This document shows, piece by piece, positions 3,957 to 21,589 of a DNA stretch of 63,145 nucleotides. This DNA comes from Acidimicrobiia bacterium (GTDB lineage Bacteria > Actinomycetota > Acidimicrobiia > Acidimicrobiales > Bin134): assembly GCA_022821445.1 (NCBI GenBank), contig JAJEDQ010000003.1, forward strand, positions 1 through 63,145. The letters run 5' to 3'. The position numbers and the translations under genes are program-made. The notes under the pieces are model-generated. The model searched no databases. It saw only the letters and a program-made list of their open reading frames with translations, and was not told the origin of the DNA. Each line of letters starts with the position of its first letter. The stretch's first letter is position 1.

Positions 3957-4814
3957 TCAGCCCACAGCCCGCTCGGCAGCGGCCACGGTGTTTGCCATCA
4001 GCATGGTACGGGTCATCGGCCCCACCCCGCCGATTCGAGGCGAAAGCCAGCCCGCCACCTCAGCCACGTCGTCGTCCACATCCGACACCAGCTTGCCGTC
4101 GGCGAAGCTCACCCCGGCGGCCACCACCGCGGCACCGGGCTTGACCATGTCGGCCTTCACCATGCGGGGCGCTCCGGCCGCGGCGATGAGGATGTCGGCG
4201 TTCTTGGTGTACCGGGAGATGTCGCCCGCCCCGGTATGCACCACAGTGACCGCGGCATTGGCGTTGGGCCGCTTCAGCGACAACAAGTTGGCCAGTGGCC
4301 GCCCAATAGTGAGACCTCGGCCGATGATCACCACGTGTTGCCCGGCGATGGGAATCTCGTAGCGCTCCAACATCAACTGGATCCCCCGCGGCGTACAGGC
4401 CAGCGGAGCGTGAACTCCCTGCACCAACCGCCCCAGGTTCACAGGGTGCAAACCGTCGGCGTCCTTCTCAGGCAACACCCGCAACAAAGTGGCCTCGTAG
4501 TCGAGATGGTCGGGGAACGGGTATTGCATGATGTACGCATCCACCGCCGGGTTGGCGTTGAAGTCGTCCACCACCGCGTTCACCTCCTCGGCGGTAGCGT
4601 CTTCGGGCAGGTGCACCTCCTGGGACACCATGCCGAGTTCCTGGCTGTCACGGTGCTTCATGGCCACGTAATTGGCCGACGGTCCATCGTCGCCCACCAA
4701 CAGCGTGCCCAATCCTGGGGTTACCCCCTTCTCAGCCAGCGCAGCAATCCGCTCCCGCAGGCCTTCCTTGATCTCAGCTGACAGCATTTCGCCGTCCAAT
4801 TTGATAGCAGTCAT
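3957..4814 (-). CDS. folD: bifunctional 5,10-methylene-THF dehydrogenase / 5,10-methenyl-THF cyclohydrolase
   Basis: MTAIKLDGEMLSAEIKEGL..., LLVGDDGPSANYVAMK, HVVIIGRGLTIGRPLANLL and GGVGPMTRTML are canonical FolD motifs. The ATG at 4814 is preferred over the track start at 4832. Confidence 0.9.
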   Translation of the reverse strand: MTAIKLDGEMLSAEIKEGLRERIAALAEKGVTPGLGTLLVGDDGPSANYVAMKHRDSQELGMVSQEVHLPEDATAEEVNAVVDDFNANPAVDAYIMQYPFPDHLDYEATLLRVLPEKDADGLHPVNLGRLVQGVHAPLACTPRGIQLMLERYEIPIAGQHVVIIGRGLTIGRPLANLLSLKRPNANAAVTVVHTGAGDISRYTKNADILIAAAGAPRMVKADMVKPGAAVVAAGVSFADGKLVSDVDDDVAEVAGWLSPRIGGVGPMTRTMLMANTVAAAERAVG

Positions 4815-4924
4815 CGCCCGGAATTCTCGCATATCTAGAGCGCCTACAACGGTCAGCTGATGTGCCCGAGATCGAGGCCTCGTCTGGGGTGCTCAATTCA
4901 TGGGAATTGCGAACGGCCGATGTT

Positions 4925-6785: not shown

Positions 6786-8102
6786 CTAGGCAGCGACAGC
6801 TTCCGTTGGCCCTCGAACCCGATCTCGGTCGATTGCGCGGGGCGAAGCGTTCAGATTGTGCCGCCCGGCGGCGTCTTCAGTCACTTGGTAGCCGTGTTTG
6901 TGCACTTTCTTGTGGCACTTGGGGCAAAGCAGCACGAGGTTGGTGATGTCGGTGGGGCCGTCGTCGTCCCACCAGATGATGTGGTGGGCGTCGCAGGCGC
7001 TGGCTCTCATGCCGCATCCGACGCATTGCTTGTCGCGGGCGATCAAGGCCAACTTTTGGGCGGCTGTGGCAGCCCGCTGTTTTCTGCCCATGTAGAGCGG
7101 CTGGCCGTCAGCGGCGAAGATGGCGGGCACGATGCCCGCGTCGCAGGCGATGTGGCGGAGGTCGTCGACGTCGATGGAGGTGCCGTCGATGAGTCCTGCG
7201 TTCTTGAGCTGGCCACTGAGCGTGTCGTAGTCGACCGAGACGATCAGTGTGGTTGCCTGTGGATCGAGGTCACACCCCGAATCGCTGGCATCGTCGTTCG
7301 CGGCGCCTGTTTCAGGCATGTCGACCTCAAGCTTTGTCTCAGGCTCGCTACCGGCACTGTCTGCTCGGTCGGGTCGTTGGGTGACGAGCGCGACCAGGGC
7401 ATCGGCGCTGCGCTGGTCGTGGGTACGGTCGCTCTCAGTTCTGGAGTCCTCGCGGAACAGCCGATCGCTCAGGTCGTGGAGCGCGGTCTTGACCCGCTCC
7501 CCGGCGATGCGATCCAACTCGGCGTACAGGATCACCATCTCGTTGTCCCCGTCAAACACCTTGGCGCTGCGCCGCTCGCGCTGGCGCTCATGGCGGGTCA
7601 ACCCGTCATCGGCCCGGCGCTGATCCTCCCGGCGGGCCAGAGTCTTCTTGAACTCGTCGAGATCCTCGGAGATGGCCACGACGACCAACTCCAGCTCTTC
7701 ATCCTTGGATAGCGGCGCCCGCAGATGCGACTCACCCATCACTCGGGCGTGATCAATGGAGATCCACCCCTGCTTGGCCGCCTCCAACGTGTCGGGCAAC
7801 GCCTTGAGCGCACTAGATGTCTTGGCCTGCTGGCGAGCCTTGTGACGACCGAGCCCAAACTGGCGACACAGTTCCTCAACCGCATCCTGCCCTTGCAGAT
7901 CGCCAAATCTGCCCAACAGGGCTGCCAGATAGCCATCCAACTGCCGACGGGCACTGTCGGCTTGAAGGATCAACTTGACCAATTCACCCGGCCCCAGCCC
8001 ATCAAATTCAACCAGCTGAACATCCACGGTAGGCCTTTCGCTGCCCCGTGACTCGCCGTTGGCATTCGTGGTGTTTCCCCTGGTGAGAGCACCTAAATCC
8101 AT
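6786..8102 (-). CDS. DUF222 domain / HNH endonuclease (actinobacterial 13E12-repeat-type protein)
   Basis: 438 aa. The architecture is N-terminal DUF222-like (LKALPDTLEAAKQGWISIDHARVM), an acidic linker, then C-terminal CVGCGMRASACDAHHIIWW...NLVLLCPKCHKKVH, which is an HNH motif. Confidence 0.8.
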   Translation of the reverse strand: MDLGALTRGNTTNANGESRGSERPTVDVQLVEFDGLGPGELVKLILQADSARRQLDGYLAALLGRFGDLQGQDAVEELCRQFGLGRHKARQQAKTSSALKALPDTLEAAKQGWISIDHARVMGESHLRAPLSKDEELELVVVAISEDLDEFKKTLARREDQRRADDGLTRHERQRERRSAKVFDGDNEMVILYAELDRIAGERVKTALHDLSDRLFREDSRTESDRTHDQRSADALVALVTQRPDRADSAGSEPETKLEVDMPETGAANDDASDSGCDLDPQATTLIVSVDYDTLSGQLKNAGLIDGTSIDVDDLRHIACDAGIVPAIFAADGQPLYMGRKQRAATAAQKLALIARDKQCVGCGMRASACDAHHIIWWDDDGPTDITNLVLLCPKCHKKVHKHGYQVTEDAAGRHNLNASPRAIDRDRVRGPTEAVAA

Positions 8103-8164
8103 GCCACAAGTCTACCGACGCCAGTGACAGTATCCCCTGGTGGCACTGGGGCAGCGCCCGGCAA

Positions 8165-9004
8165 CTACACGTAGTTCCAGCCGAAGCGGCCCTTTATGCA
8201 GAGGTTGCCGCTTGTTACGTCGTGGTCGTCGGGGGAGGTGCATTTGACGATTTGGTTGTCTTGGACATGGAGTTCGAGGTTGCAGCCGACGCCGCAGTAG
8301 GAGCACACGGTTTGGGTGACGGTTTGGTCTTCGGGACGCCAGTCGTCGGCCTGGCGAAGGTCGAACTCGGTCTTGAACTGGAGGGCGTTGGTGGGACACA
8401 CGGCTACACAGTTGCCGCAGTAGACGCAGGCCGATTCGGGCAGGGTCACGTCGAATTCGGCGGAGATGCGGGCGCCGAAACCTCGGCCGGCCACCGAGAT
8501 GGCGTAGGTGTGCTGGGCGTCGTCGCCGCAGGCCTCCACGCAGCGGTAGCACAGCACGCACTTGTCGTAGTCCCGGATGTAGAGGTTGTCCTGCACCCGA
8601 ACCGGCTCATCCATGGTCTCGCCGCCGGGGACGTAGCGGCTGGGGTCGGCGCCGTAGTGCTCGGCCCACTGGCCCAGCTCATCGGCCTGGGACACGTCGA
8701 CACCGGTGGTTAGGAACTCCAGCACCATCTTGCGGCTGTGCCGCACCCGCTCGCTGTCGGTGTGGACCACCATGCCCTCCTCCGCTGGACGGGAGCAGGA
8801 GGGGACCAGTGCCCGGCTGCCGTCAAGCTCTACCACGCACAACCGGCACACGTTCACCGGGGTGAGGGTGGGGCCGTAGCAGATGGTGGGAGTCTCCACG
8901 CCCGCGGCATCGCAGGCATCCAGGATGGTCGCGCCCTCGGGCACGGCCACCTCTTGGCCGTCAACCCGGATGGTCACCGCGGTCTCGGTGATGGCGCCGC
9001 TCAC
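8165..9004 (-). CDS. formate dehydrogenase Fe-S subunit: NuoG-like N-terminal part of FdsA (2Fe-2S, 4Fe-4S clusters and the Molybdop_Fe4S4 domain) as a separate polypeptide
   Basis: Motifs seen are TICYGPTLTPVNVCRLCVVEL (2Fe-2S), CVLCYRCVEAC and CVYCGNCVAVCP (4Fe-4S), and CSYCGVGCNLEL...GNLCIKGRFGWNYV-stop (first Fe-S domain of the Mo subunit). There is an ATGA overlap with the upstream gene. Confidence 0.85.
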   Translation of the reverse strand: MSGAITETAVTIRVDGQEVAVPEGATILDACDAAGVETPTICYGPTLTPVNVCRLCVVELDGSRALVPSCSRPAEEGMVVHTDSERVRHSRKMVLEFLTTGVDVSQADELGQWAEHYGADPSRYVPGGETMDEPVRVQDNLYIRDYDKCVLCYRCVEACGDDAQHTYAISVAGRGFGARISAEFDVTLPESACVYCGNCVAVCPTNALQFKTEFDLRQADDWRPEDQTVTQTVCSYCGVGCNLELHVQDNQIVKCTSPDDHDVTSGNLCIKGRFGWNYV

Positions 9005-10779
9005 TGGCTATTTCCTATCAGGCCCAGCGACAAAGCGGAGCGCACAGCGGAGGCCGCGGTGTGGCCCAACCCGCAGATGGAGGCATCGACCATGGCCAGG
9101 GCCATGTCATCGATGAGCTCAGATCGCTGTTTGGTCAGTGGCTTGTCGGAGCCTTGCAGCTCCACCAGCACTTCGTGTTGGCGCTGGGTGCCCACCCGAC
9201 AGGGGACGCACTGGCCGCACGACTCGTCCCGGAAGAACTCGGCGATGCGGACGACCACGGCCTCCATATCCACGGTGTCGTCGAACACCGTCACCACTCC
9301 TGAGCCGAGGGTGGCGCTCGCTTCACGGGTGTCCTCCAGGGTGAGGGGCATGTCGAGGGAGTCGGGACCGACGAACACTCCGGCCGCGCCGCCCAGCAGG
9401 ACTGCAGCCAGCGAGCCAACCGGCCCGCCGGCCAAGTCGAGCAAGTCGCCCAGCGGGGTGCCGAAAGGCACTTCGTAGAGCCCTGGAACTCCTATCCGCC
9501 CCGACAGGCAGAACAACCGGGTGCCGGGGGAGCGCTCGGTGCCTAGTGATCGGTAGGTGTCGGGGCCGTCGATCACGATGTCCAAAGCGTTGATGAGGGT
9601 CTCAGGGTTGTTGACGGCAGTGGGCTGGGAGAACAGGCCGTGGGTGGTGGGGAAGGGAGGCTTGTTGCGGGGCTCGCCCCGGAAGCCCTCAATGGAGTTG
9701 AACAGCGCTGTCTCCTCGCCGCAGATATAGGCTCCTGCCCCCCGACGAAGCTCGATGTCGAAGCGCTGCCCGCTGCCGGCCACATCGTCGCCCAGCAGCC
9801 CCGAGGCCCGGGCTTGAGCGATGGCGCTCTCCAGGCGGGCAGTGGCCCGAGGGTACTCACCCCGGATGTAGATCCAGCCGTGGGATGCTCCGGTAGCCAG
9901 ACCAGCGATGGTCATCGACTCGATGACCGCGAACGGGTCTTGCTCGCACAAGATGCGGTCTTTGAAGGTGCCCGGCTCCGATTCGTCGCAGTTGGCCACC
10001 ACGTGCTTGTCCGCCCCCGGCTCGTCGGCCACGGCCCGCCATTTAATGCCAGTGGGGAAGGCCGCCCCCCCTCGGCCCGACAACCCGGAGTCGGAGATGA
10101 CGGCGATCACGGCGTCTGGTCCCATCTCGATGGCCGTGGCCAGGGCCTCATAGCCGCCATGTTCCCGGTACGACTCCAGACTGGTGGGATCGACCACGCC
10201 CACTCGGCGCAGCACCCGCAGGCCGGGGTCGCCCGCTTGGGGCAGTTGGAACTCCTCATTGTCATCGGCGGGCACCCGGTCGGGCCGCCCAACACCCTGG
10301 ACAAACAGCGCAGGGGCCCGCTCGCACTGGCCGAGGCAGGGACTGTCGTGGACCCTGGCCCCATCCGCGTCCAGAGTCGTCCGAAGCTCATTGTTGCCCG
10401 CCAGAGCGCACGCCGGATCGACGCACACATGGACGACATCGTCGCGGTGGCCGGGATCGGCGGTTCGGAGCAGTTCGTAGAACGTGGCCACCCCATAGGC
10501 CTCAGCTGGGGGAACCCCCAGCCGCTCGGCCGCCCCGTTCAAACCGCCAGGGCTGATCCAGCCGATCTCGTGCTGAAGCGAATGCAGCACCGGTAGCAGC
10601 AGGTGGCGCAGGCCGTGGCGCCGGCTGCGGCCCCCGCGGACTATCCGCTCGGTTTCGACAATGGAGGCCGCGTTGGCTTGGGGAACGATGGCGTCGATGG
10701 CGGCCTGTTCGGCTTCGGTGGGCTGGTCGTCCCCAAAGTGCAGGTCAGCCAACGGATGCCCCCGCAGTCTCGGGGGCAA
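9001..10779 (-). CDS. NAD-reducing formate dehydrogenase diaphorase subunit, NuoE-like plus NuoF-like fusion (FdsG/FdsB equivalent)
   Basis: The N-terminus carries a NuoE-type 2Fe-2S motif (VCVDPACALAG...CLGQCERAPALFV). This is followed by NuoF motifs GRGGAAFPTGIKW, YICGEETALFNSIEG and ESCGQCVPCRVGT. The likely true start is TTG 10752, preceded by GGGGG and overlapping the upstream TGA. Confidence 0.85.
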   Translation of the reverse strand: MPPRLRGHPLADLHFGDDQPTEAEQAAIDAIVPQANAASIVETERIVRGGRSRRHGLRHLLLPVLHSLQHEIGWISPGGLNGAAERLGVPPAEAYGVATFYELLRTADPGHRDDVVHVCVDPACALAGNNELRTTLDADGARVHDSPCLGQCERAPALFVQGVGRPDRVPADDNEEFQLPQAGDPGLRVLRRVGVVDPTSLESYREHGGYEALATAIEMGPDAVIAVISDSGLSGRGGAAFPTGIKWRAVADEPGADKHVVANCDESEPGTFKDRILCEQDPFAVIESMTIAGLATGASHGWIYIRGEYPRATARLESAIAQARASGLLGDDVAGSGQRFDIELRRGAGAYICGEETALFNSIEGFRGEPRNKPPFPTTHGLFSQPTAVNNPETLINALDIVIDGPDTYRSLGTERSPGTRLFCLSGRIGVPGLYEVPFGTPLGDLLDLAGGPVGSLAAVLLGGAAGVFVGPDSLDMPLTLEDTREASATLGSGVVTVFDDTVDMEAVVVRIAEFFRDESCGQCVPCRVGTQRQHEVLVELQGSDKPLTKQRSELIDDMALAMVDASICGLGHTAASAVRSALSLGLIGNSQ

Positions 10780-12664
10780 CGACCAACTCCACCCTCACCG
10801 CTGCCGCTTTGAACTCGGCAGTGCCGGATTTCGGATCCCATTCGGGATTGGTGAGCACGTTCACGTCGATCAGCTCGGGATGGTGCAGGGTGGTGAAGGC
10901 CAGCCCTCGCGGCAGGCTTGACACCACCCGGGCGTTCATCTCCACCGAGCCCCGGGGGGAGCACACTCGCACGCGGTCGCCGTCGGCGATGCCCAAACCC
11001 GCGGCATCGTGGGTGTTCATGTCCAGGCCGGCGAATCGGATCGGCGAGTCGTATTGACCGCTTTGCACTCCGGTGTTGTAGGAGTCCAGCGCCCGCCCGG
11101 TGGTGAGCCGCAAGGGGAACTTCTCGCTCAGCTCCTCGGTCGGCCCCTCGTGCTCTAGCACCGAGAAGGGGGCCGGATCGCGGCCCTCCAGGTCGTCGGC
11201 CCACAGCCAGCCGTGGAGGAAGGCACTGCCGGGATGGTCCTCGTCGGGACACGGCCATTGCAGGCCCCCGGCAGCCTCCAAGCGCTCCCAGGCCATGCCG
11301 CCGTGCATCGCCGACAAACTACGGAGCTCGTCCCACGCTGCTTTCGGGTCGCGGGGGCCGAGTTCGTCACCCATCGCCTCGGCCATATCGCAGAGGATGT
11401 CGATGTCGTGGCGGGCCTGGCCGGGTGGGGAAACCGCGGGGCGTACTCGCTGCACCCGGCGCTCGCTGGAGGTGACGGTGCCTTCGCTCTCGGCCCAGGC
11501 CACCGATGCGGGCAGTACCACATCGGCCATCTCTGCGGTGCGGGTCATCAAGATGTCCTGCACCACCAGGATGTCCAGGCTTTCGAGCTGGGCCCGGGCG
11601 TGGAGTGCATCAGCCTCGGAATCAGCCGGATTCTCGCCGATCACGTACAGGGCCCGAAGATCGCCCTGCTCCATGGCTTCGAACATCAGAGTTAGGTGCA
11701 ATCCGGGAACAGGGTTGAGCTCCCGGCCGTAGGCGGCTTCGAACCGGGCCCGATGGTCAGGATCATCCACGCTGGCGAAGCCGGGGAACTTGTTGGGGAT
11801 GGCCCCCATGTCGCCGCCGCCCTGCACGTTGTTCTGGCCCCGCAGCGGCACCAAGCCCGACCCCCACCGCCCCACGTGGCCGGTGAGCAGGGCTAGATTG
11901 CACAACGACAGCACGTTGTCGACTGCGTTGTGGTGCTCTGTGATGCCCAGGGTCCACAGGATCTGGGCCTTGTCGGCAGTGGCGTAGGCGTGGGCCATCT
12001 CCACCACGACCTCGGCGGGAATGCCGCAGATGGCAGCCACTGCCTCGGGGGTGAACGGCTCCACCGAGGCGGCGTAGGCCTCGAATCCCTGGGTGGAGTG
12101 GGCGATGAAGTCTTGGTTGGCCAGACCGGCGTGGATGATCTCTCGGCCGATGCCGTTGGCCAGGGCGATGTCGGTGCCCACGTCAATGCCCACCCACACG
12201 TCAGAAAATTGGGCCGAGGAGGTGTAGCGGGGGTCGACGCAGTACATACGGGCACCGTTGTCGATGCCCTTGAGGACATGGTGGAAGAAGATGGGGTGGG
12301 CCTCGCGGGCATTGGATCCCCACAAGAAGATCACGTCGGTTTCCTCAACCTCCTGGTAGGAGCATGTGCCCCCTCCCGCTCCGAATACTGTCGCCAGACC
12401 GACGACCGAAGGAGCGTGTCAAGTTCGGTTGCAGGAGTCGATGTTGTTGGAGCCCACCACCGTGCGGATGAACTTCTGGGCGATGTAGTTCATCTCGTTG
12501 GTGGCCTTGGAGCAGCTGAACATCCCGAACGCCTGCGGCCCGTGTTCGGAAATCACCTGATTGAACCCGGTCGCAGCCCGCGACAGAGCCTCTTCCCACG
12601 TCGCTTCTCGCAGGCTCTCGTTGTCCCGCACCATCGGCACGGTCAACCGTTCCCGCTTCGCCAT
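10745..12664 (-). CDS. fdhA: formate dehydrogenase catalytic (Mo/W-bisPGD) subunit, selenocysteine-containing (U at residue 82, TGA 12419-12421); lacks the usual N-terminal Fe-S domains
   Basis: Track ORFs 12419..12670 and 10745..12334 are in frame. Read-through gives NIDSCNRT-U-HAPSVVGLATVFGAGGGTCSYQEVEETDVIFLWGSNAREAHP, the FDH active-site motif. The start is ATG 12664, preceded by GAAAGGGG. Confidence 0.85.
12390..12406 (-). promoter_or_regulatory. candidate bacterial SECIS hairpin for the fdhA UGA
   Basis: On the minus-strand RNA, a GUCGUC-GGUCU-GGCGAC hairpin begins 13 nt 3' of the UGA. It resembles the E. coli fdhF SECIS apical region, which I recalled from memory and did not compute. 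Confidence 0.5.
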
Positions 12665-12835
12665 TTGCACCCCTTTCCCCCAGAGACACCCTGAGGCCGC
12701 TTCTACCCTACTTGCCCGCTGTCCGAGGTTCCTGCCCCGCCTGCGGTCGGCATGATCAGCGAGATCTGCTCATAGCCAAACAAGAGTGCTCGCCAGTTCT
12801 CTCGGTGCTTGCACCTCCGGCACCGGCAGAGTCTC

Positions 12836-13677
12836 CTACTCAACGCGGAGAACAGACTGGATTCCCCAACATTCAATCGTCTGATCTGGTCGCAGACCGC
12901 AAGTGTGGAATGAGCCGGCAGCAATCGACGTGAATTGGCCTGCGGGTGGATTTGACTGTCCGTACGTATTGTCACCCCAGCAGCTGACCGTCCCATCACG
13001 CAATAGACCGCACCCATGATGGGTTCCGGTTGATGTCGCTGTGTAGGTGTTTTCAGCGGGAGACGCGATGACATTGCCGGCTGGCGACTCGTTGCCTGAT
13101 TCCCAGCAATTCTCCGTTCCATCAAATTTCAATGCGCAAAATTGAGTCTCGCTGGCAGTCAAATGCATGAATGGGCCTTCAGACTGGACCGGCATGTCAT
13201 CGAACCCCTTGCCCCAGCAAACCACGGACCCATCTGGGTGTTGGGCGCAGGAGTGATCCTTCCTAGCGACCACATCGACAAATTTGCCGTAAGGGGCGGC
13301 TCTTTGGCCATGACCATTGTGGCCCCAACAAGCAACCGTCTGATCTACCTTGAGTCCGCAATAGTGCTGTCCGCCCACTGACAGCTTTTCGAATTCTCCA
13401 GCAGGTGGATCCGGTAGACTGTAATTCCAGCAGTCAATATGCTTGTCCGTTCGCAATGCGCAGATTCCTTCGGCTTGCCAAAACGGATCAGCGTCTTCTG
13501 GGAACCGCGTGTAGCTGCGGGGCGGGGCATATTCAAAGCTTGGAATGGGTTCTAGGCATTCCAAGTCAAGGCATTCGTGCATGCCCCAGCAATCGACATC
13601 TCCGTTCACTCGCAATGCGCAGGCAAAATTAGAGACTCTGTTATCATGGTCAGCAAAATTGGTTCCCAAATATAAGT
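12836..13677 (-). pseudogene. RCC1-repeat (beta-propeller) lipoprotein gene, C-terminal fragment downstream of the IS insertion
   Basis: Track ORF 12836..13669 has repeated xCWG motifs (VDCWG, IDCWN, VACWGHNGHGQ, VVCWG, ENCWE, VSCWGDNTYGQ, IECWG). It abuts the IS end at 13678 and is markedly more AT-rich than the surrounding genes. Confidence 0.65.
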
Positions 13678-13701
13678 GGCTCTACGCGATGAAGCGGGGA
13701 C
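13678..13701. repeat. ISL3 terminal inverted repeat (right end relative to the transposase)
   Basis: See the IS entry; 21/24 match to the other end. Confidence 0.8.
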
Positions 13702-15005
13702 GTCGGGTTCTGATTTTTGTGACGGGTTGAGTTTGGCCGGGTTTTCGTCCGGCGGCAAGCAGGATTCTGAGCCGGTAGTTGTTGAGGTTGGTGAGGCCTC
13801 TGGCTGAGCGTTTGACGTCTTTGATTTCGGGGGTTGGCGGCCTCGGTGCGCCCGTTGTGGGTGCCGGTGGTGGTGCTGGTGATGATTTCTGCGCGCCAGC
13901 GCTTCAGGGTGGCGGCGAGTTTGTGCAGCTCGGGGGCTGCCTCGGGGGCGGCGCTGTAGGCGATGGCGTCGTCGAGTCGGTCGGCGGCCTGTTCGGGGTC
14001 GGCGGTTTTGAACACCGACCGGACTTTCTCCTTGGCCGCCCAGCAGTCGGCGACTTCGTCGTAGGGGTCGCCTTGGTCGAGGGCTGTTCGCAGGCGCTGG
14101 AGGCCGGCGGCGTCGAGGCGCTCGGCGCCGGTCAACAGCAGTTTGCGGATGCCGTAGAGGGGATCGCCTGCGCGGCCCCGGTGGCCGGTGGTCTCGGTCT
14201 GGGTGCGCTGGCGGCATCTGGTGAGCGCCTGGTTCGCCAGCCGCACGATGTGGAAGGGGTCCGCGGCGACCTCGACTGTGGCGGGCAGGCTGCGGTCGCG
14301 AGCGAGTTGTCGTATCGCGCTGCGGTAGCCCTCATGGGGGTCGACGCAGACCACCTCGACGCCGGCCTGCCGCCGGGGCTGCTGGTACACCCATCTGCGC
14401 AGGTCGGCGGCGTCTCTGCCGTCGAACACGTCGACGATCTGGCCGGTGGATGCGTCGACCGCGGCGGTGACGAACCGCCGTCGCCGGCGACGGGCGGCCG
14501 AGGCCATGACGGTCTCGTCGAAGCCCAGCCGGGCGACCTGGCCGACCCTGCCGGGGTCGCCGGCGATCTCCTCGGCGGCGGCCTCGACCGCTGACCACAC
14601 GGTGCGCCAGCTCACCCCCAACCGGCGGGCCGCGGACGCCACCGAGCCCTCCACAGCCGCGAGCCGGCCAACAGCCCACCGCTCAGCCCGAGAGGTGAGC
14701 ACCCGGCGCGGCCCGGCCAACTCTGAGCGCTCAGTCCAGGACCCCGCACCGCACCGCGGGCTGCGGCACTCCCAGATCCGCTTGTTCCACCGCACCCTCA
14801 CCGCACGGCCGTCCGCGCCCGGAGCGTCTCTCAGCACCACCTCGCGGCGGCCCTTCGAGCGGGCCCTGCGCCCGCACGACCCGCAAAACACCACCTGCCC
14901 GCCGGGTGTCTGCACCCCCACTGAAACCTCGCCGTACGCCTCTTCGACGCCGGTCACCTCGAATCCGGCCGCGCCCAATTGCGCTGCCGTACTACCTTCA
15001 ACCAC
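13682..15005 (-). CDS. ISL3 family transposase with an apparent 1-nt frameshift in a C5 run (plus 13829-13833)
   Basis: There is an N-terminal zinc finger (FCGSCGRRA...WECRSPRCG) and a DDE_Tnp_ISL3-like core. After ...THNGRTEAAN the track frame turns into low-complexity PRNQRRQTLSQ... Shifting by one nt gives PEIKDVKRSARGLTNLNNYRLRILLAAGRKPGQ...RFIA-stop at 13682, the conserved ISL3 C-terminus. Confidence 0.8.
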
Positions 15006-15092
15006 CAGGGGCCTCCCGTCTCTTGGACTATGTGACAGTCACAAGAATCGGCGAGGCCCCCACCCTCAGTGGCGGACCCTCAAATCACCCTG

Positions 15093-15116
15093 GTCCCAGC
15101 TTCAACGCGAAGAGCC
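15093..15116. repeat. ISL3 terminal inverted repeat (left end relative to the transposase)
   Basis: See the IS entry; 21/24 match to the other end. Confidence 0.8.
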
Positions 15117-15626
15117 CGTTTGTTTGTCGCCAGCAAAGACAGAGTGGAACAGAGCATTGGGAACTTCAAGTTGACCATGAGAATTATCTCCCCAGCAGGT
15201 GACGAATCCGTTTGTTCGAAGTGCGCACACGTGATTGTGCCCGGCGGAGATGGATTGGAATCGAGATGTCTGCCTACTCGGGTCTATGGGGTTGGTCGTT
15301 GGTTGTGGCGTTGGGTGGGGAATCGACATCGGTGTCGGGAACGGAGTTGATGGGAGAGGGGGGTTAGCAGTCGGCCTAACCACGGGAGCAGCAGAAGGAG
15401 CAGGGGAGGTAGCGCTTGATGCTGATTGAGCAGACGTTGAATGCGACGACGGGATGGGTGATTCAACCGGTTCAGTTAATGCTGCAATAGGCGGTTGGGT
15501 TGTTTGAGTGGTGTCGGGCTGGCGGGCAGCGGGCCGGGAGCCTTCAGTGCCGCAACCCGCCATCCCGACGGAGAGAATCACCAATGCGCCGACCAAGACC
15601 AAGAGATTCCCGGCGCGCTCGGTCAT
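15117..15626 (-). pseudogene. RCC1-repeat lipoprotein gene, N-terminal fragment (signal peptide/lipobox, Pro/Thr-rich linker, first RCC1 blade) truncated by the IS
   Basis: MTERAGNLLVLVGALVILSVGMAGC is a lipoprotein signal. A PT-rich linker follows, then FQSISAGHNHVCALRTNGFVTCWGDNSHGQLEVPNALFHSVFAGDKQT. At 15116 the frame runs into the IS inverted repeat and stops at 15102. Confidence 0.65.
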
Positions 15627-15687
15627 ACTCGCACGATATAGACTCTTGGCTGGGTGATTTGGTTCCGCCGGGTGGGCGGCCACCCGG

Positions 15688-17385
15688 TCAGCTCAGGCCG
15701 ACGATCTCGCCGTTTTCGTCGAGGTCGATGCCCATGGCGGCGGGTTGGCGGCCGAGGCCGGGCATGGTGCGCATGTCTCCGCAGATGGGGTAGACGAAGC
15801 CGGCGCCCACCGAGGCCCGCACCTCCCGCACCGGCAGGGTCCAGCCGGTGGGGGCGCCCTTGAGGGACGGGTCGGACGAGATCGACAGGTGGGTTTTGGC
15901 GATGCACACCGGGAGGTGGCCGAAGCCGGCCGACTCGTAGGTGTCGAGCTGGCGGTTGGCGGTGGCCGAATACTCCACGCCGTCGGCGCCGTACACGGTG
16001 GTGGCCACCGCGGCGATCTTGTCTTTGAGCGAGAGGTCGTCCTCGTACAGCACCTTGAACGAGCTGGGCTCCTCGCAGGCTTCAGCTACTGCCTCGGCCA
16101 GATCGGCTGCGCCCGCGCCGCCGTCGGAGAAGTGGGTGGTGACCGCGCAGCGGGCGCCGTACTCGTCGGCGATCTCGCCGATGGCGGCCAGATCGGCGTC
16201 GTGGTCGCCGGGGAAGGCGTTGATGGCTACCACCGGGGTCACACCGTGGGCCTTCATGTTGGAGAGCTGCTTGCGGAGGTTGTCGCCCCCGGCGTGTACC
16301 TCGTCGGGGTTCTCGGCCAGCAGCGCCTCGGGCAGGGGCCGCCCGGCCACGATCCGGTGGTTGCCGGAGTGGGCCTTGAGGCCCCGCACGGTGGCCACCA
16401 TCACCGCGGCATCCGGGTCGATGCCCGAATAGCGGCACTTGATGTTGAAGAACCGCTCCGCGCCCATGTCAGCGCCGAACCCGGCTTCGGTTACCAGGAA
16501 GTCGCCGGTGCGGATGGCGATGCGGTCGGCCACGATCGAGGAGTTGCCGGTGGCTATGTTGCCGAACGGACCGGTATGCACCAGGGCGGGGCCGCCCTCC
16601 AGGGTCTGCATAAGGTTGGGCTTGAGGGCGTCCTTCAACAGCACGGCCATGGCCCCAGCGGCCTTCAGGTCCTCGGCGGTCACCGGGTTGCCGGCTTTGG
16701 TGTAGCCCACCACGATCCGGCCCAGCCGGGCCCGCAAGTCCGACAGCGACGTGGCCAACGCCAAAGTGGCCATCACCTCGGACGCGGCGGTGATGTCGAA
16801 GCCTGATTCCCGGGGGACTCCGTCGAGCCGCCCGCCCAGGCCGATCACCACGTTGCGCAAGGCCCGGTCGTTGATGTCCACCACCCGTCGCCAGGTGATG
16901 TTGTGCAGATCGAGCCCCGACTCGTTGCCGTGGTAGATGTGCGCGTCGAGCATGGCCGAGCACATGTTGTGGGCTGCGGTCACCGCGTGCATGTCGCCGG
17001 TTAGGTGGAGGTTGAAAAGCTCCATGGGCACCACCTGGCTGTAGCCGCCGCCGGCCGCGCCGCCCTTGATGCCGAACGTCGGCCCCAGCGAAGGCTGGCG
17101 GATGGCGATAGTGGCCCTTTTGCCGATGTGCCCGAAACCTTGGCCCAGGCCCACCGTGGTGGTGGTCTTGCCCTCGCCCAGCGGTGTGGGAGTGATGGCG
17201 GTCACCACCACATAGCGGGCCCTGGGCCGGTCGGCCAGCGCCTCGATGGCGTCCAGGCTGATCTTGGCTGCCCCCGCCCCGTAGGGCTCCAGCATCTCGG
17301 TGGGGATGCCGGCTTCTTCAGCGATTTCAGTAAGCGGTCGGAGATTCGCCCCGCGGGCAATCTCGAGATCAGAAGGAAAAGACAT
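15688..17385 (-). CDS. fhs: formate--tetrahydrofolate ligase
   Basis: MSFPSDLEIARGA..., TAITPTPLGEGKTTTTVGL, GIKGGAAGGGYSQVVPME and FNLHLTGDMHA are canonical Fhs motifs. ATG 17385 is preceded by GAGAGG. Confidence 0.92.
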   Translation of the reverse strand: MSFPSDLEIARGANLRPLTEIAEEAGIPTEMLEPYGAGAAKISLDAIEALADRPRARYVVVTAITPTPLGEGKTTTTVGLGQGFGHIGKRATIAIRQPSLGPTFGIKGGAAGGGYSQVVPMELFNLHLTGDMHAVTAAHNMCSAMLDAHIYHGNESGLDLHNITWRRVVDINDRALRNVVIGLGGRLDGVPRESGFDITAASEVMATLALATSLSDLRARLGRIVVGYTKAGNPVTAEDLKAAGAMAVLLKDALKPNLMQTLEGGPALVHTGPFGNIATGNSSIVADRIAIRTGDFLVTEAGFGADMGAERFFNIKCRYSGIDPDAAVMVATVRGLKAHSGNHRIVAGRPLPEALLAENPDEVHAGGDNLRKQLSNMKAHGVTPVVAINAFPGDHDADLAAIGEIADEYGARCAVTTHFSDGGAGAADLAEAVAEACEEPSSFKVLYEDDLSLKDKIAAVATTVYGADGVEYSATANRQLDTYESAGFGHLPVCIAKTHLSISSDPSLKGAPTGWTLPVREVRASVGAGFVYPICGDMRTMPGLGRQPAAMGIDLDENGEIVGLS

Positions 17386-18927: not shown

Positions 18928-20409
18928 ATGGCGAACTGCGCGCTGGTGGCCGGGGTGGACTCCTCCACCCAGTCCACCAAGGTCGAATTGCGAGAAATCG
19001 ACTCGGGTCGGCTGGTGGAGCGGACCAGTGCCCCACACAGCCACGCATGCTGGGAACCGCCGGTTAGCGAGCAGGAACCGGCAACTTGGTGGGAGGCGTT
19101 GAAAGCCTGCTTTGCCCAATTCACAGATGCCGACCGGTCGAACGTGGCGGCGGTGAGCGTGGCCGGTCAGCAGCACGGGCTGGTGCTGGTAGACGAGGAC
19201 GGCACGGTTCTGCGACCGGTCAAGCTGTGGAACGACACGACTTCTGCACCTCAGGCCCGAGATCTGGTTGCCCGCCACGGAGCAGAGCAGTGGGCCCAAC
19301 GCTGCGGGTCGGTTCCGCTGGCATCTTTCACCATCGCCAAGCTGGCCTGGGTGTTGGAGCACGAGCCCGAGTTGGGCGACCGGATCGCTCGGATCATGCT
19401 GCCCCACGACTGGATCACCTGGCGGCTGACCGGTGCCCATGTCACCGACCGTGGTGACGCCTCGGGCACCGGATGGTTTGATCCCGCCAGCAACGAACTG
19501 GCTGATGATCTCTTGGGGTTAGCGGTCGGTGGCCCGGAGAGCTGGCTGCCGCGCCTGCCCCGAGTGCTGGCCCCCGACGCTGCTGCTGGTGAGATCACCC
19601 CGGACGCGGCCTCCGCGTTGGGACTGCCCGAGTCGGTGCTAGTCGGCCCCGGCACCGGCGACAACATGGGCGCGGCCCTCGGCCTGGGGCTCAAGCCAGG
19701 CGACGCGGTCATCTCCCTGGGCACCTCTGGAACGGCCTACTCGGTGTCCCGCACACCGACCAGCGACCCGTCGGGAGCGGTGGCAGGATTCGCCGACGCT
19801 GCCGGCGGCTTCCTGCCCCTGGTGTGCACTCTCAACGCCACCCGGGTCACCGACACGGTGGCCCAATGGCTAGGCGTGGACGCCCCCGGTCTGGCCGAGA
19901 TGGCTTTGGCCGCCCCCGGCGGCCCGAACCCGCCGGTCCTGGTGCCCTACTTCGATGGGGAGCGCACCCCCGACCTGCCCGACGCTACCGGGCTCTTTGC
20001 CGGGTTGCGCAATGACACCACCCGCGAGGAGTTGGCCCTGGCCGCCCACGACGGCGTTCTCTGCGGCCTCTTCGACGGTCTCGACGCTCTTCGGGCCGCC
20101 GGCGTGGACGTCGGGGGCACGCTTCACCTCGTCGGAGGCGGGGCCCGCTCGAAGGCCTACCGGCTGAGAGCCGCAGCGCTGCACGGCGAGCCGGTGTCTG
20201 TGCCTGACGACGATGAGACGGTGGCGGTGGGCGCCGCGGTGCAGGCAGCGGCAGTTGCCACCACTCGCCACCCGGCTGAGGTTGCCGCCGACTGGCCGCT
20301 AGGGAGGGGAGAGCAGGTGGAGCCTCCAGTCGGCATCGCATGCGAAGAAGTCAGAGCCCGGTATGGGGAGCAGCGCCGGAGATCGTTCCCACCTGAATCA
20401 GGACGGTGA
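18928..20409 (+). CDS. xylB: xylulokinase (FGGY carbohydrate kinase)
   Basis: VAGVDSSTQSTKV, VAGQQHGLVLVD, KLWNDTTS, GTGDNMGAALGLG and LVGGGARSKAY are FGGY motifs. The gene lies immediately downstream of xylA. Confidence 0.85.
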   Translation: MANCALVAGVDSSTQSTKVELREIDSGRLVERTSAPHSHACWEPPVSEQEPATWWEALKACFAQFTDADRSNVAAVSVAGQQHGLVLVDEDGTVLRPVKLWNDTTSAPQARDLVARHGAEQWAQRCGSVPLASFTIAKLAWVLEHEPELGDRIARIMLPHDWITWRLTGAHVTDRGDASGTGWFDPASNELADDLLGLAVGGPESWLPRLPRVLAPDAAAGEITPDAASALGLPESVLVGPGTGDNMGAALGLGLKPGDAVISLGTSGTAYSVSRTPTSDPSGAVAGFADAAGGFLPLVCTLNATRVTDTVAQWLGVDAPGLAEMALAAPGGPNPPVLVPYFDGERTPDLPDATGLFAGLRNDTTREELALAAHDGVLCGLFDGLDALRAAGVDVGGTLHLVGGGARSKAYRLRAAALHGEPVSVPDDDETVAVGAAVQAAAVATTRHPAEVAADWPLGRGEQVEPPVGIACEEVRARYGEQRRRSFPPESGR

Positions 20410-20434
20410 TGCCCGGCTATGGGAGAGTAGGCCC

Positions 20435-21589
20435 ATGTCGAGCGATCTGATGATGCGGGAATTTGGGGCCAACCTGCCGGTTCCGGAGTTCGAAACCACC
20501 CCGTGGACAACGCCACCTCCACTGGCCGAGGCCACCGTGGCCATCGTGACCAGCGCCGCGCTGCACCGGCCTGATCAGGATCTGTTCACACCGTTTGACA
20601 CGGGCTACCGGATGATCGACCGGAGTGATCGCGAACTGGTATTGGGCCACTGGAGTACCAACTTCGACCGCTCGGCCTTTCTGCTAGACCACAACGCGGT
20701 GTACCCCATCGACCGACTCGAGGAGCTGGCCGCCGACGGGGTAGTCGGCCAGGTGGCGCCTCGGCATGTGGCGTTCGCCGGAAATCAGCCTGACACAGTG
20801 GAAGAAGTCCGACTCGACACCGGCCCGGCCGCGGCGGCCGAGTTGAAGGCCGATGGCGTGGACGTGGCCATCTTGACGCCGGTTTGACCACTGTGCACGC
20901 GCACCGTGTGTGTGCTGGCCCACGTTCTTGAAGATGCCGGGATCACCACCGTGGTACTGGCCTCGATGCGTCCGGTGGCCGAGAAGATGAAGGTGCCCCG
21001 CACGCTGTACTGCGAGTTCCCGTTGGGTCGGCCGCTGGGAATTCCCGGCGATGCCGAGTTCCAACACGATGTGCTGCGGGCCGCATTCGATCTGCTGGAG
21101 GCTTCGTCGGGGCCTGTGGTGGAGGACTACCCCAAAGCGGTGGAAGCTGACGAGACTCCACTGGCTTGCGACCTGCCTCCTCGCTTCGACGCCGACCTGT
21201 CGCCACCGGTGGCTGAGGCTCAGGGGTTACGGGCCGCCTACGGCCGAGCTGTGGCTCGCCGTGGGGCCACCGAGGTTGGCCGGTCAATCGGCAGCGATGA
21301 AGTGCCAGGTGCGCTGGCCGATCTGGAGCGGGTGGTCGCTGGCGAGCACTGGAAAGAGGTTTATGGCCCTCGCTTCGACACCATCGCGGTGTCCCATGAC
21401 ATCCGGGCGTACTACCAAGAGGCCGCCTTGGAGCTGGCCGACGGCCCGCCTGCCGGTGCTCGGCAAGTGGAAGCTTGGTTTTTTGAGAAGACCGAGGCAG
21501 GCAAGACGCTGGCCGCGGCCCGCGACGCCCTCAATGAACAAGGGGCGCCCGGCGGCATCACCTTCTACATGGTGCCGATCGGGCGCTGA
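20435..21589 (+). CDS. glycine/sarcosine/betaine/D-proline reductase selenoprotein B (GrdB/PrdB) family protein, selenocysteine at residue 151 (TGA 20885-20887)
   Basis: Track ORFs 20363..20887 and 20906..21589 are in the same frame. Read-through gives DVAILTPV-U-PLCTRTVCVLAHVLEDAGITTVVLASMRPVAEKMKVPRTLYCEFPLGRPLGIP. This matches the GrdB/PrdB pattern U-x-x-C-T-R...E.AGI..V...P.A...R....PLG.P. The start is ATG 20435. Confidence 0.75.
20889..20908 (+). promoter_or_regulatory. GC-rich hairpin immediately 3' of the grdB-like UGA (possible SECIS component)
   Basis: CACUGUGC-ACGC-GCACCGUG can form 7 base pairs with one U.C mismatch. It has not been evaluated against a SECIS model. Confidence 0.3.

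Follow-up and report, generated by a model that had tools for sequence, protein, structure and literature searches.

A formate dehydrogenase operon with a split alpha subunit and a very probable selenocysteine codon in an Acidimicrobiia bacterium

The window analyzed here comprises 63,145 nucleotides (positions 1 to 63,145 of the forward strand of contig JAJEDQ010000003.1, assembly GCA_022821445.1) from an Acidimicrobiia bacterium. On its minus strand lie three consecutive genes predicted to encode a formate dehydrogenase (FDH), and the first of them, the gene of the catalytic subunit, contains an in-frame TGA. This codon, the hairpin that follows it in the mRNA and resembles a selenocysteine insertion sequence (SECIS), and the operon that carries both are the subject of this report. 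The features concerned are the following; Sec stands for selenocysteine and bisPGD for the bis-pyranopterin guanine dinucleotide cofactor.

10745..12664, minus strand: gene of the predicted catalytic subunit of a Mo/W-bisPGD FDH, 639 residues with putative Sec82 and without an Fe-S domain (translation, Pfam, alignment with FdhF, PDB matches).
12419..12421, minus strand: in-frame UGA, presumed Sec codon (residue 82), found as TGA in all 82 related loci and aligned with Sec140 of E. coli FdhF.
12377..12416, minus strand: SECIS-like element, made of an upper 6-bp helix with a GGUCU loop (12390-12406) and a weaker lower helix pairing 12411-12416 with 12377-12382.
9001..10779, minus strand: NuoE/NuoF fusion of 592 residues, a predicted diaphorase subunit equivalent to FdsG plus FdsB (Pfam, PDB matches).
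8165..9004, minus strand: predicted Fe-S subunit of 279 residues, the N-terminal NuoG-like part of FdsA as a gene of its own (Pfam, alignment with FdsA).

A first-pass annotation of this DNA had joined two open reading frames (ORFs) of the minus strand, 12419..12670 and 10745..12334, into a single gene, and the join is borne out: both lie in a common frame, with the TGA at 12421-12419 between them. Translation of 12670-10745 on the minus strand yields one frame of 641 sense codons in which this TGA is the sole internal stop, flanked by VGSNNIDSCNRT on its N-terminal and HAPSVVGLATVFGAGGGTCSYQEVEETDVIFLWGSNAREAHPIFFHH on its C-terminal side; in the immediate context, the stop separates SNNIDSCNRT from HAPSVVGLATVFGAGGG. 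The minus-strand codons across the site read TCC TGC AAC CGA ACT TGA CAC GCT CCT TCG GTC GTC GGT CTG GCG ACA GTA, and if the TGA stands for Sec, a peptide across it would read NRT-U-HAPSVVGLATVFGAGGGTCSYQEVEETDVIFLWGSNAR. The probable start of the gene is the ATG at 12664, which is preceded by AAGGGG and kept in relatives, resulting in a joined product of 639 residues with the TGA as residue 82; a GTG at 12670 is an alternative start. The same annotation predicted that standard gene callers would report an 83-residue stub and an N-terminally truncated protein. This pattern is indeed seen in relatives, the gene calls of loci L001 and L002 consisting of a Molybdopterin stub of 81-85 residues and then a protein of 547 residues, but the stub counted from ATG 12664 has 81 residues and not 83. 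The start chosen by the callers for the second piece in these relatives (position 8001 in both L001 and L002) is a GTG, the codon +11 after the TGA. In the window, codon +11 (12386-12388, minus strand) is GTA instead of GTG, and the ORF after the TGA therefore has 529 residues, as compared with the 547-residue calls in relatives.

Pfam analysis of the joined protein reports only two domains, Molybdopterin (PF00384, E = 1.4e-70, residues 6-429, matched from profile position 1) and Molydop_binding (PF01568, E = 2.3e-22). Pairwise alignment with residues 61-694 of E. coli FdhF (RefSeq K-12 fdhF) returns 36% identity over 639 residues (E = 2e-130) and sets U82, H83 and R275 opposite Sec140, His141 and Arg333 of FdhF, so that the TGA falls on the catalytic Sec/Cys-His position, where the first reading of the sequence had placed it. 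The fdhF motif quoted there agrees with the RefSeq sequence, CCARV-U(140)-HGPSVAGL. Boyington and colleagues reportedly described, in 1997, Sec140 of FdhF as a ligand of the metal, and His141 and Arg333 as conserved catalytic residues; a summary is given in PMC7171172. The solved structures closest to the protein all belong to formate dehydrogenases, namely the HDCR FdhF (7QV7, E = 3e-148), the F420-dependent FDH (9T1S, E = 1e-137) and 7BKB, with further matches to E. coli FDH-H (1AA6, E = 5e-122) and R. capsulatus FdsA (6TG9); the alignments shown have Cys or X opposite position 82 and a conserved His. These PDB alignments start at about residue 58-62 of the short FDHs and at about residue 306 of FdsA. 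Pfam finds no N-terminal Mop-type Fe4S4 domain within the catalytic polypeptide, this domain being encoded in the separate 279-residue protein, likewise in relatives. The product of 12664-10745 is predicted to be the catalytic subunit of a cytoplasmic FDH of the NAD-linked type, a description in which both the metal and the NAD+ specificity are presumptive, and its metal-ligating residue 82 is most plausibly Sec.

Relatives of the locus were collected by a scan with one genome per species, which returned 80 loci with 60-96% protein identity; 82 loci entered the codon comparison. They stem mainly from metagenome-assembled genomes (MAGs) of Acidimicrobiia, many of them with sponge-associated names (Ca. 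Poriferisocius, Ca. Poriferisodalis), and include the cultured Ilumatobacter nonamiensis YM16-303 as well as members of Gaiellales, Thermoleophilia and Acidobacteriota. A TGA stands between DSCNRT and HAPS in 82 out of 82 loci, and none has a sense codon at this place. The tblastn matches continue across the TGA codon, with both flanks conserved as coding sequence (60-96% identity), and the closest relative, L003, is 96% identical in protein sequence over residues 1-639 without any frameshift. Hence the gene has none of the signs of decay that had been named as grounds for doubt: its frame is intact, and no relative carries a sense codon. In a database of 5.8 billion proteins, the best 120 homologues (72-92% identity) are all 524-565 residues long and cover 80-87% of the joined query, and each of them has therefore been called from just after the TGA. 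Within the window, TGA is the ordinary stop codon of 25 of the 38 confident genes, which argues against a reassignment of the genetic code and for a site-specific recoding. Such a pattern of conservation is incompatible with a nonsense mutation, with a pseudogene and with a global reassignment.

Regarding the RNA, the first-pass annotation had proposed a hairpin, GUCGUC-GGUCU-GGCGAC, at 12406-12390, starting 13 nucleotides (nt) after the UGA. The hairpin is present, as the upper helix of the minimum-free-energy fold, and the spacer measures 12 nt. In this fold, computed on 65 nt around the UGA, a lower helix CGCUCC/GGAGCG is followed by the upper helix GUCGUC/GGCGAC, closed by the GGUCU loop. 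The likeness of the loop to that of fdhF, also claimed there, holds against the RefSeq sequence, as the distance from the UGA to the start of GGUCUG is 18 nt, in the window as in E. coli fdhF. G23 and U24 are the loop bases that contact SelB in the E. coli fdhF SECIS, and because of the equal offset of GGUCUG they occupy equal positions in the window. An ungapped comparative alignment of 83 sequences, 78 of which are distinct, has 99.8% of the cells of the upper helix paired. Two pairs undergo compensatory changes, C24-G36 being replaced by G-C in four sequences and G25-C35 by A-U in one, and a U-G pair becomes C-G or U-A in 11 sequences. Controls in which the 3' partner was shifted by 1-3 columns are all far worse than the true pairing, and the consensus reported by RNAalifold is exactly the upper helix alone. 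The covarying sites are synonymous third positions: a Val codon changes from GUC to GUG where an Ala codon changes from GCG to GCC. The third-position entropy amounts to 0.28, 0, 0, 0 and 0.30 bit at codons +5 to +9, against values of typically 1.1-1.9 at other conserved four-fold codons. All 82 unique sequences have GGU for Gly +7, whereas each of the four bases occurs in the third position of other Gly codons. Such frozen third positions are the mark of selection on the RNA beyond the selection on the peptide. A comparison of a 111-nt stretch with 4227 Rfam families ranks SECIS_3 (RF01989) at the top, aligned over the full length of the model with UGA on UGA and loop on loop. We infer from these features that the hairpin at 12390-12406 is a bacterial SECIS. 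The loop is identical in 82 of the 83 sequences. The sole variant, in L018 (2558-2629), reads GGUCG and exchanges Leu for Arg, which may reflect an error of sequencing or a change that is tolerated.

Sec machinery was sought in the window and in the related loci. When E. coli SelA, SelB and SelD are used as tblastn queries, the window and the full set of loci give a single match, a selD in L079. On this 56.7-kb MAG contig, whose FDH is 63% identical to that of the window, selB and selD follow the orthologous FDH operon, which also contains the TGA, at ~4 kb on its downstream side. The segment 11716-13921 (minus strand) encodes a SelD of 340 residues in the Cys form, to which one source also gives the name SelD, and the C-terminal part of a SelB with SelB winged-helix and beta-barrel domains. 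The relatives of this SelD are mostly labelled Dormibacterota, yet the L079 record is labelled Nanopelagicaceae. ARAGORN reports no tRNA of any kind in the window and no tRNA-Sec in the 82 loci, where it returns two odd-length tRNA calls only. In the literature, most bins of sponge symbionts are reported to have both SelA and SelB (PMC5649159), and a complete Sec machinery has been described in Actinomarina, another lineage of Acidimicrobiia (preprint, bioRxiv 10.64898/2026.04.03.716425). Apart from the Actinomarina preprint, our literature search found no account of these lineages using Sec.

The window contains a second candidate selenoprotein gene.

20363-21589, plus strand: candidate GrdB-like selenoprotein gene with a TGA at 20885-20887 (Pfam GRDB; Cys in homologues).

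Here, the TGA links an ORF of 174 residues (Pfam GRDB) in frame to an ORF of 227 residues, which would give the motif LTPV-U-PLCTRTVC. This TGA is kept in seven relatives, and the GRDB profile terminates at it. Among ten full-length homologues that were read (380-420 residues), nine have a Cys at the TGA residue and the tenth has none there, and many other homologues have been called as fragments of ~230 residues beginning just after the TGA position. To judge from these alignments, the pattern is the classic Sec/Cys signature. The hairpin after this TGA is not convincing (z = +0.53). The presence of two TGA codons of the Sec/Cys type within 63 kb suggests that the source organism is a Sec user, in agreement with the published SelA and SelB of sponge symbionts. 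The selB and selD of L079 lend further indirect support.

On this evidence, the gene with the TGA at 12419-12421 is, with high confidence, a genuine Sec-recoded formate dehydrogenase gene. Several observations weigh against this interpretation. Folded by itself, the window sequence has an ordinary energy (z = -1.15), the lower helix has 85.9% of its cells paired and one of its pairs mostly broken, and the conserved peptide VVGLAT explains part of the nucleotide conservation. The E. coli fdhF SECIS has a bulged U and a 6-nt loop, whereas the window helix has six continuous pairs and a 5-nt loop; the bulged U17 of the E. coli mini-helix is thus not present, since U17 pairs with A31. The SECIS_3 match lies below its gathering threshold (13.8 bits versus 63, E = 1.1 on 111 nt), which by Rfam's criterion places the element outside this family, and Rfam run at gathering thresholds on the whole 63-kb window gives no hits. 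Neither selA, selB and selD nor tRNA-Sec was found in the window by Pfam analysis of ~40 ORFs, ARAGORN and tblastn, and a search with the L079 SelD, whose matches are mostly Dormibacterota-like, tied the Sec machinery to no genome of the close sponge-associated clade. Finally, an ISL3 insertion ~1 kb upstream of the catalytic gene could affect the expression of the window copy.

Of the other explanations, the one that survives best, improbable as it is, holds that the UGA is read through without Sec, either by genome-wide reassignment to Trp or Gly or by a SelB-independent near-cognate insertion of Cys or Trp. It would agree with the negative outcome of the search of the window for Sec machinery. 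However, TGA serves there as a regular stop of most confident genes, the codon falls exactly on the metal-ligating Sec/Cys position, a hairpin with a GGUCU loop of the fdhF type follows at the distance found in fdhF and is both conserved and covarying, and one orthologous operon, that of L079, has selB and selD nearby. A true nonsense mutation in a decaying pseudogene has hardly any probability left. It could appeal to the ISL3 transposase and the DUF222/HNH gene that flank the operon and to the two fragments given by gene callers, but the same TGA occurs in every orthologous locus down to 60% identity and in several phyla, both flanks of the codon are conserved as coding sequence, without frameshifts and with 96% protein identity to L003 over residues 1-639, the frozen synonymous sites downstream fit an RNA helix and not decay, and identities of 60-96% exclude clonal copies of one assembly. 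Just as implausible is a pair of separate polypeptides (81 and ~530 residues) assembling non-covalently: this enzyme family tolerates splitting of the alpha subunit, but the 28 codons that separate the TGA from the earliest start available in the window encode a peptide (HAPSVVGLATVFGAGGG) that all loci conserve strongly, the catalytic His83 included, the GTG restart of the callers at +11 is GTA in the window and has no ribosome-binding site, and neither fragment would carry the metal ligand.

Downstream of the catalytic gene, the operon continues with the NuoE/NuoF fusion and the Fe-S subunit. The three genes overlap, by 35 nt between the catalytic and NuoE/NuoF genes and by 4 nt between the NuoE/NuoF and Fe-S genes. 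Pfam analysis of the fusion reports the 2Fe-2S_thioredx, Complex1_51K, SLBB and NADH_4Fe-4S domains, and its best PDB matches are beta subunits of NAD-dependent FDHs, 6vw7_B and 7e5z_B, the latter being the fused beta subunit of Methylobacterium. The Fe-S subunit comprises Fer2_4, two 4Fe-4S motifs and a Molybdop_Fe4S4 domain that reaches its final residue, and its residues 9-278 correspond to residues 24-302 of the FdsA chains 9wxb_B and 6tg9_A. Because the catalytic protein aligns with FdsA from residue 306 and the Fe-S protein with residues 24-302, the two together make up one FdsA. The cut falls exactly between the Fe4S4 domain and the Molybdopterin domain, and the diaphorase gene lies between the halves. 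The order catalytic gene, NuoE/NuoF, Fe-S is found in every related locus with enough DNA, and in L001-L004, L006, L008-L010 and L012 the catalytic gene starts ~70-120 nt after fhs, with the same ATG wherever aligned. A 5' truncation by the upstream insertion sequence, which might have explained the missing Fe-S domains, was considered and rejected, as the relatives have the same start, split and gene order. The split of the alpha subunit is natural and old.

Sec-type FDHs that are 62-71% identical to that of the window and have an equal split gene order also occur in MAGs labelled Gammaproteobacteria (L021, L025), Spirochaetia (L053, L077) and Acidobacteriota (L050, L064, L071-L073, L075). 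These operons assigned to other phyla could result from horizontal transfer or from mis-binning.

How the Sec-recoded enzyme would be made and would work can be outlined as follows. Starting 12 nt past the UGA, the mRNA hairpin with its 6-bp helix and GGUCU loop would serve as the SECIS. SelB·GTP·Sec-tRNASec, presumably bound at the loop, would deliver Sec while the UGA is in the A site, so that termination does not occur and Sec is inserted at the UGA. The product would be a catalytic subunit of ~69 kDa that binds Mo- or W-bisPGD and would assemble into a complex with the products of the two co-transcribed, overlapping genes. Of these, the NuoE/NuoF fusion would carry the flavin mononucleotide and the NAD(H) site, and the 279-residue protein the 2Fe-2S and 4Fe-4S clusters and the Mop-type Fe4S4 domain. 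Electrons from formate would then pass from Mo/W to the Fe-S protein, the flavoprotein and NAD+, and fhs and folD would connect the FDH to the one-carbon (C1) metabolism of tetrahydrofolate (THF).

The predicted enzyme shares features with several characterized systems. With E. coli FdhF (1AA6/1FDO), it has in common the Mo-bisPGD catalytic fold and the CAC codon after the UGA. However, FdhF possesses an N-terminal Fe4S4 domain, whereas the window protein, whose start corresponds to residue 61 of FdhF, is devoid of it, and the partner of FdhF is hydrogenase 3, in place of the NuoE/F-like and NuoG-like proteins of the window. The module set of the operon is that of FdsABG(D) (R. capsulatus 6TG9/6TGA, C. 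necator 6VW7) and of M. extorquens Fdh1AB (7E5Z), whose beta subunit is a NuoE and NuoF fusion as in the window. The catalytic protein corresponds to the catalytic residues 306-933 of FdsA, which is a single polypeptide of 958 residues with Cys386 as Mo ligand (PMC7171172). In comparison, the alpha subunit of the window is encoded by two genes, in a permuted order (catalytic, diaphorase, Fe-S) and with a putative Sec ligand instead of Cys386; neither fdsD nor fdsC has a recognized counterpart in the operon. At the position of residue 82, the HDCR FdhF 7QV7 has a Cys, while the F420-dependent 9T1S has an X, presumably Sec. The HDCR FdhF2 isoenzyme and 9T1S keep their own Fe4S4 domain, work with partners of the hydrogenase or F420 type and belong to strict anaerobes or methanogens, unlike the enzyme described here, which comes from Acidimicrobiia, sponge-associated lineages among them. 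In its active site and recoding, the enzyme seems to resemble FdhF, and in its electron path FdsABG/Fdh1AB.

Sec in FDHs and the miscalling of Sec genes are textbook matters, and the understanding of Sec decoding itself is unchanged by this finding; the split and permuted alpha subunit and the GrdB-like Sec gene are its more unusual by-products. A published description of such a split FDH was not found in the literature searched, the search not being exhaustive. It is conceivable, although we hold it with less than even confidence, that the operon represents an undescribed architectural subclass of NAD-linked metal FDH, in which a cluster-free Sec catalytic protein and a five-cluster NuoG-like protein are encoded in permuted order, conserved across Acidimicrobiia, Gaiellales/Thermoleophilia and Acidobacteriota, and placed in the fhs-folD C1 cluster of sponge-associated lineages. 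In that case, electrons leaving the pterin would have to pass from one subunit to another before they reach the first 4Fe-4S cluster, and an FDH of the Sec type would be the standard formate oxidizer of lineages presumed aerobic. Sec-type FDHs are usually regarded as oxygen-sensitive. The conserved split of FdsA amounts to a natural experiment on cut sites and could interest those who engineer FDHs for CO2 reduction. As regards annotation, because the best 120 homologues are recorded as N-terminally truncated proteins of ~547 residues, reconstructions of Acidimicrobiia metabolism, including that of sponge symbionts, may score this FDH as broken or miss a dependence on selenium.

A scan of 7900-13000 for promoters and terminators found nothing. 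Two genes of C1 metabolism lie on either side of the operon.

15688..17385, minus strand: fhs, formate-tetrahydrofolate ligase (Pfam FTHFS, E = 5.6e-251), located next to the FDH operon on its upstream side in close relatives.
3957..4892, minus strand: folD, methylene-THF dehydrogenase/cyclohydrolase (Pfam THF_DHG_CYH, THF_DHG_CYH_C).

The order fhs, catalytic gene, NuoE/NuoF, Fe-S, in some cases followed by folD, is found in L001-L013, and folD comes immediately after the Fe-S gene in L001, L004, L006 and L007. With fhs upstream and folD downstream in several relatives, the operon forms part of a formate/THF C1 cluster, which is circumstantial evidence for activity on formate. In the window, a low-GC (52-57%) RCC1-repeat gene (12836-15683, minus strand) separates fhs from the FDH operon and is itself split by an ISL3-family transposase gene (13650-15005). 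An intact RCC1-repeat gene occupies the equivalent place in L005, and in most of the close relatives fhs is the immediate upstream neighbour of the FDH gene. On the other side, downstream of the Fe-S gene and in the interval before folD, lies a DUF222/HNH endonuclease gene (6786-8111, minus strand), homologues of which are found at varying positions in other relatives.

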